Origin: Ophelia neglecta
Taxonomy: Eukaryota
Length of the DNA stretch: 64,000 nt
Reading direction: 5' to 3'
NCBI GenBank assembly: GCA_965285935.1
Contig: OZ260661.1
Location: forward strand, 36,332,001-36,396,000
This document shows, piece after piece, positions 39,293 to 44,611 of the stretch; position 1 is the first letter of the stretch; each line of letters starts with the position of its first letter. Under the pieces are notes generated by a model. That model made no database searches, had not been told where the DNA came from, and saw only the letters and a program-made list of their open reading frames with translations. The position numbers were made by a program, and so were the translations under genes.

Positions 39293-40240
39293 TATGCTGG
39301 ACTTCCTTTACACAAATGATGTATACGCCTCGGTGGTCCCTTTACTATTTAGTGCCAACGATGAAACCTTAAAATAGAATTTAATCTATGGTCTAGAGTC
39401 TTATATAGGCAGCACCGGGCGGTTTTAGTGTCTGTACATTGAAATGGCGGGACACAACTCGTTAAAATTAATTATCATTATTATTCTATTTTTTTACCAC
39501 TCATTTGTATTCCATTTATTTATTTATTTAGTTATTCTAACTACTGTACCCCCCCCCCCCAAAAAAAAAACACAAAACATTTGTTGATGTTATTTATTCG
39601 CCTTTACCTAAATGTTTTAAGCCTTATGAGTGTAATATTCATCTAAGTTGAAGTTTATACTTATTTATGACTAATGTGTGTAGCACGTGTTTATCAATCT
39701 GTTTATCTGTCTGTTTAGCTATGTTATGTCCATAGGTTAATTTACTTAAAAATGTATTGAAAGGCAGGGAGAATCCAATAGATTAGCCTCGCTAATATGA
39801 AATATGTCTAAACCGATTCTGGCCATGTGTATAGCAGCTTCTTGTATCCGCGAATTCTGCCTATTAAGGCCTATCTTTCTGAAGCCCAAGGGAGTGTCCT
39901 GGATCGGACGGTATACCAAGTCATTTTTATAGTATCTTTTATACAAAGTACCCTGCATTTTTTACCTAAACCTTTCAGAAAAATACTACTTCTGCCATTT
40001 GTTTTATGGGACAATCAAACTATATAATTATACACTATCGACTTACCTTTATAATTGTATTTATTCATGTAATTTATTTTCAATCTTTATTGTGCATTGT
40101 AAAGCGCCAAAGACCAATATGTGGCTCTGTATAAAGTATAAAAAAAAATAATGATTTCCAACATCTGTTTAGTAAGGTTGGGACACTGAGAAAAGTACAT
40201 TTAGGTAGTATATGCGTATAACGCCGTAATCGTCCAAAAT
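39293..40240. repeat. Left copy of the ~950-bp direct repeat flanking the LINE
   Basis: tatgctggacttcc...cgtccaaaat; matches 43660-44611 apart from a few substitutions and homopolymer/CA length differences. The ORF track shows identical 70-aa and 66-aa ORFs in both copies. Confidence 0.97.
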
Positions 40241-43200
40241 TTGTGACAAACAGCTAGATACGTTAGACCCATACAGACGGGGCAAGGGGGGGATAGGTTT
40301 CGTATGGAAAAAGCAATATGGGTCAGCCATAAAGACATTTGACCTGGCCAGTGATCGGGTGGCAGCAATTCAACTTAGGCTGGCTGAGAACCAATTGATA
40401 ACATTTATATGTGCGTATTTGCCCTCGTCATATTCAACCAAGGATGAATATATTGTAGCCTTGGAAAAATTGCAGATAACTTATGAAGAATTCAGTGACT
40501 ATAGCCAGGTTATCATTTTAGGGGACTTGAATGCGCCAGTACAAGGCCCACGAGGTGTTCAGTGTAGAACTAGCTTTAGATCTAGAGCCCTAGCGCAAAT
40601 GATAAATAAGTATGATCTCACTTCACTTACGGTGCAAGAAAAATGTCGTGGACCTGACTATACCTTTAAGCAGGAGGGTGGCTTCAAAAGCTTGATAGAT
40701 CATATACTTCTAGCAAAATCGAGTGCAGATCTATGCGTTAAAACGTATATCATAAACGAAGATCCTGCAAACGGCAGTGATCACTTGCCAGTGATCACAT
40801 CGTTAAAGATATACCGAATAGAGGTCAAATATGAAAAGAAGCAAAATAACTACCTCAACTGGCAAAAATGCAGCGCCGAGGAAATAAGAAACTCTTATGG
40901 ATTGCAAGTTAAGCAAATCGCTGTGTCGCTAGCCCTTCAATACGGTAATTGTACTGACAGCGTGGAGGTTGACGACTTCTATGACACGTTGGTTGCTGCA
41001 ATTAATAAGTGCGCTATTGAGAATATCCCGGTCACAACATTTAATCGGCATGTGAAACCCTTCTGGAAGGGAAGTGACCTACCAGACCTTCATGCGAAAA
41101 TGAGAGCTGCGAGGACAGAATTCGAAAATTCGCTGGCTACAGAAGAATAAATCAGTGTATAAGGATTGCAAGCGAAAATTTAGATGTGCAATGCGCACAC
41201 ATCAAGCTAAATTGTTGTTAGAGGTACATCAAGAGATAGAAGAAGCAGCCGAAGCGGACCAGAAAAAACTCTGTTATCTTGTAAGAAGGAGCCAGGTCCA
41301 AATTGGCAGAACAGTTAATGAACTTAAAATCAATAACACTGTGTACAGAGGTACGGGCGAAATGCTGGTTAAGTGGCATGAGTATTTTCGTGACCTTTAC
41401 ACGCCGTCCACAGACCCAACCTTCGATGATAGACACAAGGCGTTGGTTGATGATGAATACACCTGTATACTTAATAAATGTCATCAAGAAGTTGATACAA
41501 TTATGAACAATCCTTTCACGTATGAGGAGGTAAAGTCTGTGATTAGAGGCCTGAAATCAAAAAAGGCCCCTGGAGGCGACGCTGTCACGCATGAGCATCT
41601 TAAGTATGGCGGGGGCTCATTGGTGAAGGCCTTGATGGTATTGTACAATAACATGTGTAAGCTCATGCACATCCCTGACAAGCTCAAATATGGTCAAACA
41701 ATTGTATTATTCAAAGGCACAAAAAAGTACCAAGACGACCGAAAAAATCACAGGGGGATAACCTTGCTTTCAGTTATCTACAAAGTATTCGAAAGGCTGA
41801 CCCTTCATAGGTTCAAGGTCTGGTTGGCTGTAAATCAAATGAACTTCCCCCATCCCTTGCAATGTGCATACCAGCAGGGTGCCTCCAGTCAGATGACATC
41901 TTTAACTGTACAAGAATGTGTGAACCACCATTTAGAAATGGGAGCAAAAGTATTTGCATGCTTTTTAGACTCCTCCTCTGCCTTTGATCTTATATGGCAC
42001 GAGGGGCTGTTTGTAAAATTACATAGGTTAGGTATTAAGGGGGTATTCTGGAGGATTTTAGTTGAAAGTTATGGAAACATGACTAATCAAGTATTGTTAA
42101 ATGGGGAGAAATCAGACCATATTCCCGTTAAACAATCTGTCAGGCAGAAGTCCGTTTGGGGCCCCCAATTGTTCATGCTTTTTTACGACGGAATGTTGGA
42201 AGAACTTGAAGCGTCTGGTGCAGGCGCAGAGGTCAATGGCGTATTCTGTGGCTGCCCGACGCAAGCAGATGACGTCGTATTGCTGTCGCTGACACCCATG
42301 GGGCTACAGACAATGATAGATATCTGCTATGAGTATTCAAGAAAATGGCGATTCCTGTTTAATCACACAAAGTCCAGTGTCATGGTCTTCCAAACAAATA
42401 AACGCAAAAAAGTCACTTTTAAATGGAAACTTGGGGGAAATTTAATACCCGTCGTGGAAGAAGTGACCCATGTAGGAATGACTTTAAGCAACATAATGTC
42501 ATCAAAATCACACATAACAGACTCGTGTATTAAGATGAAGGGCAGACTTGCAGCTATGTGCAGACTAGGTGCTGGTCCTTTGACAAACCTTTCCCTGCTC
42601 AAATCTGTAGTACTGAGTAGTGCATTGTACGGGTGTGAGCTTTGGAGCGATATGACCATGGAAGAGATGAAAGCCATAGAGAGGGCATGGCGACATTGTG
42701 TCAAAACCGTACAACATTTTCACCCAAGAACAAGAACTGATGTGGCATTGTTTTGTCTGGGAGTACCCTCAGCTGAGGCCTTAATTGATATTCAAAAGCT
42801 AGCCCTTTTTGGTAGAATGGTCAATTTATGCCAAAAGTTCTCGGCTAAAGTTCTGTTTGTTAAAAGACTGTTCAGGGCTTTAGCCCCAGTTGTGGGTCGT
42901 GTAAAACAAAGAGGTTTTACAAGTGATGCTGTCAGTTTATTATATAAATACAATCTCGAAGAAACGCTACATATATACATAGAAACTTCACACTTTCCCT
43001 CAAAGAAGGTATGGAGGGCCATGGTTAAAGAAGCTGTCCATCAGAAGTGGAATCACGGTCTGAGGGATCGTGTGCATTCAGACCCTGAGCTTGCCCTATT
43101 AAAAGACTTGGGTGACTCGAGTGTGCCCAACAGACTGTGGACTTTACACAGGAATGCTGGTTTTGCGGCCCGGTTGGTGTTAGGTCTGACGTTCCTTTTG

Positions 43201-43659
43201 TCCATTCCAGCTGGTCGACAGGGGCAGTGCTATCATTGTGACAGTAAACTCGTCGATTTTCGTATCCATGTATTGTGTTTCTGCTCTCACTTCTATATTC
43301 AGAGGGAATTGTTTTGGTTAGGTCTAAGCCACTTTCCAGTTGATTTAGAACGTGATCTAAACAACTATGACGAAGAAGATTTTGTCAAGGTAGTTCTAGG
43401 CACAAAAAGCTTAAATAGTAAATGGGATGAGATCGAAGACTATCTTCTCATGCATTCGGCCAAGTCATTTGGTTCAGTGGGAGTTCACTTAAGAAGCTGT
43501 AACCAATGTAAAAGTCACATATATTTGTAAGAGTTACAAACTAACTTTATTTGATATTTATACTATATTGTTATGTAAATAGCAGTTTTCATTGTCAACT
43601 TTAATTATTCTCTGTATGGAGTACTCTTCTTTATAGGAGGAAATAAATAAATATATATA
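40241..43659 (+). mobile_element. 5'-truncated non-LTR retrotransposon (LINE, APE endonuclease + RT; clade uncertain, RTE-X-like or CR1/L2 group)
   Basis: The frame opens at 40242 inside the APE domain (RGKGGIGFVWKK, YLPS, ILGDLNA, SLIDHIL, SDHLPV). Frameshift near 41150. RT ORF 41155-43530 (KAPGGD, HRGITLLS, FLDSSSAFD, QADD, LYGCELW, C-terminal CxxC..H...C). 3' tail aaataaataaatatatatat. Confidence 0.93.
41155..43530 (+). pseudogene. LINE ORF2 reverse-transcriptase portion, split from the endonuclease portion (40242-41150) by a frameshift
   Basis: 791-aa open frame with the RT motifs listed for the element; the EN and RT parts are in different frames. Confidence 0.85.
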
Positions 43660-44611
43660 TATGCTGGACTTCCTTTACACAAATGATGTATACGCCTCGG
43701 TGGTCCCTTTACTATTTAGTGCCAACGATGAAACCTTAAAATAGAATTTAATCTATGGTCTAGAGTCTTATATAGGCAGCACCGGGCGGTTTTAGTGTCT
43801 GTACATTGAAATGGCGGGACACAACTCGTTAAAATTAATTATCATTATTATTCTATTTTTTTACCACTCATTTGTATTCCATTTATTTATTTATTTAGTT
43901 ATTCTAACTACTGTACCCCCCCCCCCCCCAAAAAAAAAAACACACAAAACATTTGTTGATGTTATTTATTCGCCTTTACCTAAATGTTTTAAGCCTTATG
44001 AGTGTAATATTCATCTAAGTTGTAGTTTATACTTATTTATGACTAATGTGTGTAGCACGTGTTTATCAATCTGTTTATCTGTCTGTTTAGCTATGTTATG
44101 TCCATAGGTTAATTTACTTAAAAATGTATTGAAAGGCAGGGAGAATCCAATAGATTAGCCTCGCTAATATGAAATATGTCTAAACCGATTCTGGCCATGT
44201 GTATAGCAGCTTCTTGTATCCGCGAATTCTGCCTATTAAGGCCTATCTTTCTGAAGCCCAAGGGAGTGTCCTGGATCGGACGGTATACCAAGTCATTTTT
44301 ATAGTATCTTTTATACAAAGTACCCTGCATTTTTTACCTAAACCTTTCAGAAAAATACTACTTCTGCCATTTGTTTTATGGGACAATCAAACTATATAAT
44401 TATACACTATCGACTTACCTTTATAATTGTATTTATTCATGTAATTTATTTTCAATCTTTATTGTGCATTGTAAAGCGCCAAAGACCAATATGTGGCTCT
44501 GTATAAAGTATAAAAAAATTAATGATTTCCAACATCTGTTTAGTAAGGTTGGGACACTGAGAAAAGTACATTTAGGTAGTATATACGTATAACGCCGTAA
44601 CCGTCCAAAAT
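43660..44611. repeat. Right copy of the ~950-bp direct repeat flanking the LINE
   Basis: Starts immediately after the LINE (AT)n tail and ends at cgtccaaaat. Confidence 0.97.

Follow-up and report, generated by a model that had tools for sequence, protein, structure and literature searches.

The window analysed here, a stretch of 64,000 nucleotides from Ophelia neglecta (assembly GCA_965285935.1, contig OZ260661.1, positions 36,332,001 to 36,396,000 of the forward strand), contains a 5'-truncated long interspersed nuclear element (LINE) that has a copy of the same stretch of host DNA, about 950 bp long, on either side. A match of this length at 98.8% identity, with both ends on element junctions, is far beyond chance and very probably represents a real target duplication made at insertion, a core that is common to different readings of the route. 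Across the genome, long duplications are the commonest measurable duplication of this LINE lineage; insertion of its elements is likely accompanied by the duplication of long segments at the target site.

The window locus and its LINE family

The locus comprises the following features, all on the plus strand:

39293-40240: left copy of the duplicated target DNA, 948 bp
40241-43659: 5'-truncated LINE, likely Proto2/RTE-X, with 99.0-99.7% identity to seven other copies
43660-44611: right copy of the duplicated target DNA, 952 bp, running on into single-copy DNA downstream
40238-40240: AAT microhomology at the 5' junction, from comparison with longer family copies
40241-41150: APE endonuclease frame, N-terminus missing, stopping at a frameshift near 41148
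41104-43530: 808-aa open frame for the reverse transcriptase and the C-terminal part
43636-43662: conserved 3' end with GGAGG, AATAAA and an (AT)n tail, the final TAT common to the target
39262-39792: older LINE 3' fragment, about 80% identical to many dispersed copies; it passes over the left edge but is truncated in the right copy
39292-39293: 7-8-bp deletion found solely in the window copy of the old repeat; it coincides exactly with the unit's left edge, the presumed first-nick site

As stated in a preliminary description of this DNA, a direct repeat of about 950 bp exactly flanks the LINE. Its two copies are 98.85% identical over 953 aligned columns and differ by four substitutions and three indel events, the latter in homopolymers, with four of these seven differences falling within the last 101 bp. 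Aligned to three longer copies, the LINE starts in the middle of the endonuclease at 40238-40241, where AAT is common to target and element; it lacks ORF1 as well as approximately the first 66 codons of open reading frame 2 (ORF2), which is further broken by the frameshift. At the other end, the right repeat copy begins where the (AT)n tail ends, with TAT common to both. The older fragment at the left edge is, judging from its C-terminal frame, presumably L2/CR1-like.

A search of the genome itself (762 Mb) returned eight copies of the LINE family at ≥99% identity, and a separate search with the 3' end led to the same eight, all dispersed, carrying an (AT)n tail and differing in their 5' ends. 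The preliminary description had argued for a very long target duplication instead of a terminal repeat of the element and had proposed, among other checks, to test whether the 950 bp accompanies other copies of the LINE and which duplications flank these. The unit was absent from all seven other copies; their own target duplications measured about 104-108, 25, 17 and 13 bp, a fifth copy showed a 63-bp target deletion in a transfer RNA (tRNA)-Leu array, and two were without duplication. The whole unit is present only twice in the genome, and its part beyond the old repeat, like the downstream flank, is single-locus. The absence of the unit from the other copies, together with the older repeat that crosses the left edge, shows that the repeat is host target DNA.

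The element is an APE-type LINE, with APE endonuclease and reverse transcriptase in one ORF2, a simple-repeat tail and variable 5' truncation. Pfam matches in the window copy are PF14529/PF03372 for the endonuclease and PF00078 for the reverse transcriptase, and the endonuclease motifs are intact in a longer copy. In the full ORF2 of 1,230 aa, Pfam detected only these two domain types, a search that a very divergent RLE could escape. The element's reverse transcriptase motif C-x-P-[TS]-Q-A-D-D-I-V-L-[LM]-S is the same, by eye, in three bivalve elements (three of the 17 QADD-bearing rows of a published alignment), which are filed as clade Proto2, two of them with the RepeatMasker type RTE-X (PMC10294476). 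A homologue search with the element gave no useful names; going by the motif, it likely belongs to Proto2/RTE-X.

Several LINE copies show further peculiarities. In the full-length family copy in the tRNA-Leu tandem array with the 63-bp target deletion (L041-L044, C2:18.44-18.48 Mb), ORF1 is preceded by 201-bp tandem repeats, and an element with 195-bp long terminal repeats (LTRs) lies beside or inside the 5' part of the copy. At C12:19.84 Mb (L008-L010), a 467-bp unit that reaches across the 5' junction, with about 287 bp from the flank and 180 bp from the LINE, occurs three times. A further family copy (L006, C7:24.287 Mb) has an internal deletion of about 730 bp and is truncated 7 bases from the truncation point of the window copy, in a G-rich stretch.

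Long duplications across the lineage

The survey of the lineage started from a reverse transcriptase search with 113 scored hits from 7,942 candidates. From the 106 hits outside the window family, 100 were fetched with 10 kb around them, extended by a further 10 kb upstream for 40 loci and 6 kb downstream for 12. Seven loci were dropped as tandem or segmental copies of another (L094, L101, L129, L140, L142, L154 and L157), and with the eight family copies added, the set comprised 101 independent loci.

Long direct repeats were found at 34 of the 101 loci, belonging to 18 families by our own grouping, with lengths of 54-2,941 bp and a median of 354 bp; 13 of them measure at least 500 bp and eight at least 1 kb. 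Short duplications (7-25 bp) were present at seven loci, six loci lay in tandem arrays where no call was possible, and 54 had no duplication, including two with a repeat located 1.1 and 3.2 kb off the element. Thus, 34 of 41 unambiguous duplications are long, and together they added 24.6 kb of host DNA. Their lengths are continuous, not fixed, and they accompany full-length and truncated copies alike at unrelated targets. Where a test was possible, duplication-free loci look like target deletions, two of which were shown (7 and 63 bp) and five suggested (about 343, ≥37, ≥129, ≥360 and ≥1,455 bp). The extended upstream scan of 40 loci for hidden, very long duplications revealed only the 204-bp repeat 3.2 kb off the element at L110, and otherwise just matches of 14-21 bp away from the element start; among 44 loci screened for overlooked short duplications, one of 7 bp was found, at a null rate of 1%. 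The preliminary description, confined to a single insertion, underestimated the scope of the phenomenon, because long duplications are the most frequent kind among the measurable ones of this lineage in this genome.

At the 3' junctions, 26 of the 32 loci submitted to a measurement of the overlap of tail and target could be anchored, and all 26 show 2-9 bases, mostly TAT, that are common to the tail and the downstream copy; in 21 of them, this overlap is preceded by G or C (p = 0.0045, corrected for the excluded base). Only one of the 34 long cases (L076) has no tail. The 5' junctions, checked against a relative at 27 loci including three with short duplications, were precise in 24, of which 15 show microhomology of 1-9 bases and nine contain 1-10 extra bases; the remaining three have gaps of 34, 159 and 447 bp. 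Taken together, 3' junctions are tail-primed and 5' junctions are of the end-joining type, with duplications and deletions forming a continuous spread.

As controls, we inspected 14 loci of other LINE types, which we label L1/Tx1-like and L2/CR1-like from their motifs; five were not evaluable (four tandem arrays and one unclear end). The L1/Tx1-like copies showed duplications of 15, 14 and 14 bp (the last in an array), none, and 1,119 bp, and the four L2/CR1-like copies had no duplication. The ratio of long to short duplications is 34:7 in the lineage versus 1:3 in the L1-like controls (Fisher p = 0.03, small sample). The long control case (L232, C7:61.375-61.381 Mb) is an L1/Tx1-like copy with an identical 1,119-bp duplication, within which lies an entire young repeat, about 910 bp long. 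Long duplications hence look enriched in this lineage but not confined to it, and the host may contribute to them. Relatives in metagenomes have the 3' motif in common; a scan of 37 of 80 such loci gave no long flanking repeat, most contigs ending at the element and thus being uninformative.

Some single loci deserve mention. The two 1,392-bp copies at L125 differ by 34 substitutions, though the element is 99.7% identical to a sibling, for which allelic exchange or templating by the homologue is a possible cause. L157 and L161, on different chromosomes, have a common downstream flank, and a 1,161-bp duplication exists only at L161. Three loci (L131, L132 and L135) have about 830 extra bases in common after the tail, ending in a second (AT)n run, an apparent 3' transduction that kept moving. 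A Tx1-like family is inserted at four loci (L222-L225) in the same position of a tandem repeat unit, an apparent site specificity.

Possible routes to a kilobase duplication

As to the particular route, we lean, by a modest degree, towards a distant or uncoupled joining of the 5' end after a normal tail-primed first strand. The endonuclease of the element would make the first nick only, at a site where G or C precedes TAT, and the first strand would be synthesized by normal tail-primed reverse transcription, leaving an intact (AT)n tail and the TAT common to the target. A far-off nick of unrelated origin, a replication intermediate or strand displacement could provide the 3' end of the other strand, which the host would then attach to the complementary DNA by end-joining. 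Joining downstream of the nick would give a duplication, joining upstream a deletion; the 5' end of the window element was likely joined about 950 bp from the first nick, which would account for the 950-bp duplication. Later unequal recombination between the copies could produce arrays of unit, LINE and unit or, reciprocally, a clean loss.

Of all steps in the insertion of a LINE, the cutting and joining of the second strand is understood least (PMC5223499; PMC2666801), and long duplications are known from other systems. In human cells deficient in nucleotide excision repair (NER), L1 insertions had duplications of 5 bp to 5.3 kb with a median of 1,495 bp, for which a distant, uncoupled second nick was proposed, and in HeLa cells duplications of more than 100 bp never exceeded 10% (PMC5223499). 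We count this model in favour of the distant-joining route, although that case concerns engineered elements in mutant lines, and here natural insertions in an assembly were studied, nearly all of which keep their tails. ZfL2-2 in chicken DT40 cells showed the same spectrum of duplications, blunt joints and deletions as observed here, with long deletions in Ku70 mutants (PMC2666801); its long duplication was rare, however, with one of 1,228 bp in 25 wild-type insertions. A similar case is Dualen-4b_cRei of Chlamydomonas reinhardtii, where more than half of the new insertions have duplications of >50 bp, with variable lengths and a median of 900 bp, and where the authors suggested the two endonucleases (RLE and APE) as the cause (PMC9977147). 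Long duplications of variable length are common in both cases, but Dualen is one family of a green alga observed in mutation-accumulation lines, and the present set comprises 18 families in an animal assembly, and the full 1,230-aa ORF2 has APE and reverse transcriptase as the only domains found by Pfam. In animals, R9 of rotifers made a natural long duplication of 126 bp (as cited in PMC9977147), yet it is specific for ribosomal DNA with one reported length, whereas the targets here are unrelated and the duplications span 7-2,941 bp.

Several observations weigh against the distant-joining route or limit its reach. More than half of the loci (the 54 mentioned above) have no duplication, and most of these permitted no test for a deletion. 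Loci were picked by reverse transcriptase hits, which favours long, young copies, and short copies are unsampled. In about eight of the 34 long cases, the element's 5' end was placed by its position before ORF1 or lacked a defining relative. One of the four measurable L1-like controls has a kilobase duplication as well, and effects of lineage and host are not separated by it. Moreover, a simple staggered nick would not lead one to expect the private loss of 8 bp at the left edge, and contigs derived from the reads of three runs (one sample of one study, possibly the source of the assembly) show neither junction of the window locus.

The left-edge deletion would be explained by copy-back synthesis, the main competing reading, which we regard as possible but rather unlikely. 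In this case, a double-strand break would form at the first nick, and the polymerase, after copying the RNA, would jump to a genomic AAT microhomology 950 bp downstream and copy back to the nick; the left copy would then be new DNA, end-joined to the upstream flank with a loss of 8 bp. In line with this, the 7-8 bp missing exactly at the left edge, a loss that the preliminary description did not mention, are present in all eight aligned paralogues of the old repeat, and the deleted form exists at one place in the genome, compared to 15 exact places for the intact form. Given about four private deletions in 530 bp, we estimate the chance of a coincidence at roughly 2%. At L078, the 5' junction likewise contains 159 bp whose template lies about 2.2 kb farther downstream. 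On the other hand, the scar is not repeated at the two other repeat-edged loci (none at L161, and at L134 a 3-bp deletion 14 bp away), and since contigs from each of the three runs carry the deleted form, the loss may be older than the insertion. Mismatches are not enriched beside the 5' end of the LINE across loci either (9.5 versus 8.3 and 7.9 per kb), a result which also disposes of error-prone synthesis near that end, as suggested by the cluster of mismatches in the window; a later crossover with the empty allele would explain this cluster.

An endonuclease-independent capture, in which a tandem duplication would have arisen by repair and LINE RNA would have been used to patch the junction, appears improbable. 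The broad range of lengths mixed with deletions does resemble break repair, and an unrelated L1-like copy has the same structure; but the overlap of tail and target in 26/26 anchored loci and the G/C bias at position -1 speak for a chosen nick and normal priming, and loss of the tail is restricted to L076.

Still less probable is an assembly artefact, i.e., a mis-join of haplotypes at a heterozygous insertion, as the preliminary description had considered. The divergence of about 1% between the copies resembles the variation of the flanks in the contigs, which contain neither junction. A contig of 7,937 bases, however, runs through the window LINE unbroken despite many truncation points in that assembly, and hence these contigs appear to drop junction paths in general. 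Furthermore, in the window as at most of the 33 other loci, both ends of the duplication coincide with element junctions that show microhomology, several duplications are 99.9-100% identical over 795-2,941 bp, and the entire structure in the window spans just 5.3 kb. Contig depth inside the unit is mostly above that of the flanks (X2: 21-28 versus 17 and 9-11; X3: 16-28 versus 13 and 10; X1: 28-46 versus 29 and 20-22, two short X1 pieces having depths of 14.5 and 15.9), which we do not count as evidence, because the depth of a contig does not measure copy number.

Two insertions at separate sites 950 bp apart, each on a different haplotype, would lead through unequal recombination to the same final structure, but this is highly improbable for a family of eight copies in 762 Mb and would require the coincidence at 34 loci. 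That the 950 bp form a terminal repeat of the element, as their LTR-like look might suggest, can practically be dismissed for a unit that cuts through an older repeat and is missing from every other family copy. Even taken jointly, capture, mis-assembly, double insertion and terminal repeat are an unlikely explanation.

Consequences for host genes and further features

At other loci, the duplicated DNA includes coding sequence. At C2:88.72-88.74 Mb (L164 with L216), a LINE lies antisense in the single-exon frame of a Toll-like receptor with a duplication of 2,399 bp, resulting in a complete open frame of 814 codons with LRR and TIR domains and an ectodomain-only copy of 639 codons that ends in the tail of the element. 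Four units of 1,786 bp with three LINEs between them are found at C2:89.24-89.27 Mb (L129, L142, L143 and L218), where the unit contains EGF, chitin-binding and EGF segments, and its exons are thus multiplied fourfold, and a 2,283-bp unit forms a two-LINE array at C12:40.94 Mb. In both arrays, successive repeats lie one unit plus one LINE apart, the spacing expected from unequal crossover between the copies, so that these arrays may have grown from a duplication in this way.

Accordingly, the suggestion of the preliminary description that such insertions duplicate exonic DNA holds for the Toll-like receptor and the EGF/chitin-binding loci; in the window itself, the duplicated DNA consists of the old LINE tail and non-coding sequence. 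Its idea of an expanding gene cluster around the window locus was not borne out, as a self-comparison of the window shows no paralogous exon set, and of the nearby exon-like frames one is single-copy and another is a fragment of a dispersed repeat. Recombination between the copies agrees with the arrays elsewhere, and the clean removal of the LINE stays a proposal.

Tentatively, and with a chance that we put a little below even, an animal LINE lineage with a single endonuclease (Proto2/RTE-X) leaves the position of second-strand joining unfixed, with duplications or deletions of 0.05-3 kb instead of short target duplications as its germline norm, and acts as an engine of exon and gene duplication wherever it occurs. 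If true, this would be a standing source of novelties such as a soluble Toll-like receptor ectodomain or arrays of EGF/chitin-binding exons. Earlier cases of kilobase duplications came from cell lines, where they were rare or a product of mutants, and from one dual-endonuclease algal family, whose habit they are; in this animal genome they are the commonest measurable duplication in 18 families that have a single recognisable endonuclease, which offers a natural system for testing the control by element versus host.

Such duplications could easily be overlooked, since duplicated flanks can pass for LTRs or collapse in short-read assemblies, and searches stopping at 30-50 bp would be blind to them. 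For the RTE clade, target duplications of 10-20 bp are reported (PMC1291365; PMC2887409), and searches limited to 10-49 bp in this clade (PMC6007223) or to 5-30 bp (PMC2912911) would miss longer ones. Duplications of about 200 bp for RTE-1 of C. elegans found no confirmation in the literature covered. The parts of PMC10294476 on Proto2/RTE-X LINEs of bivalves mention no LINE target duplications, those of PMC12477816 no long ones, and in the open-access text covered we found no report of long duplications in Proto2/RTE-X.

Apart from the LINE, the window contains inverted arms of 16-bp tandem repeats about 1.5 kb apart (22754-24504), resembling a miniature inverted-repeat transposable element or a foldback element, and a 42-bp tandem array that is open in several frames (33704-34375). 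Exon-like frames at 59708-62919 with a weak match to Pfam TYW2_N_2 presumably belong to a TRM5/TYW2-type tRNA methyltransferase gene.

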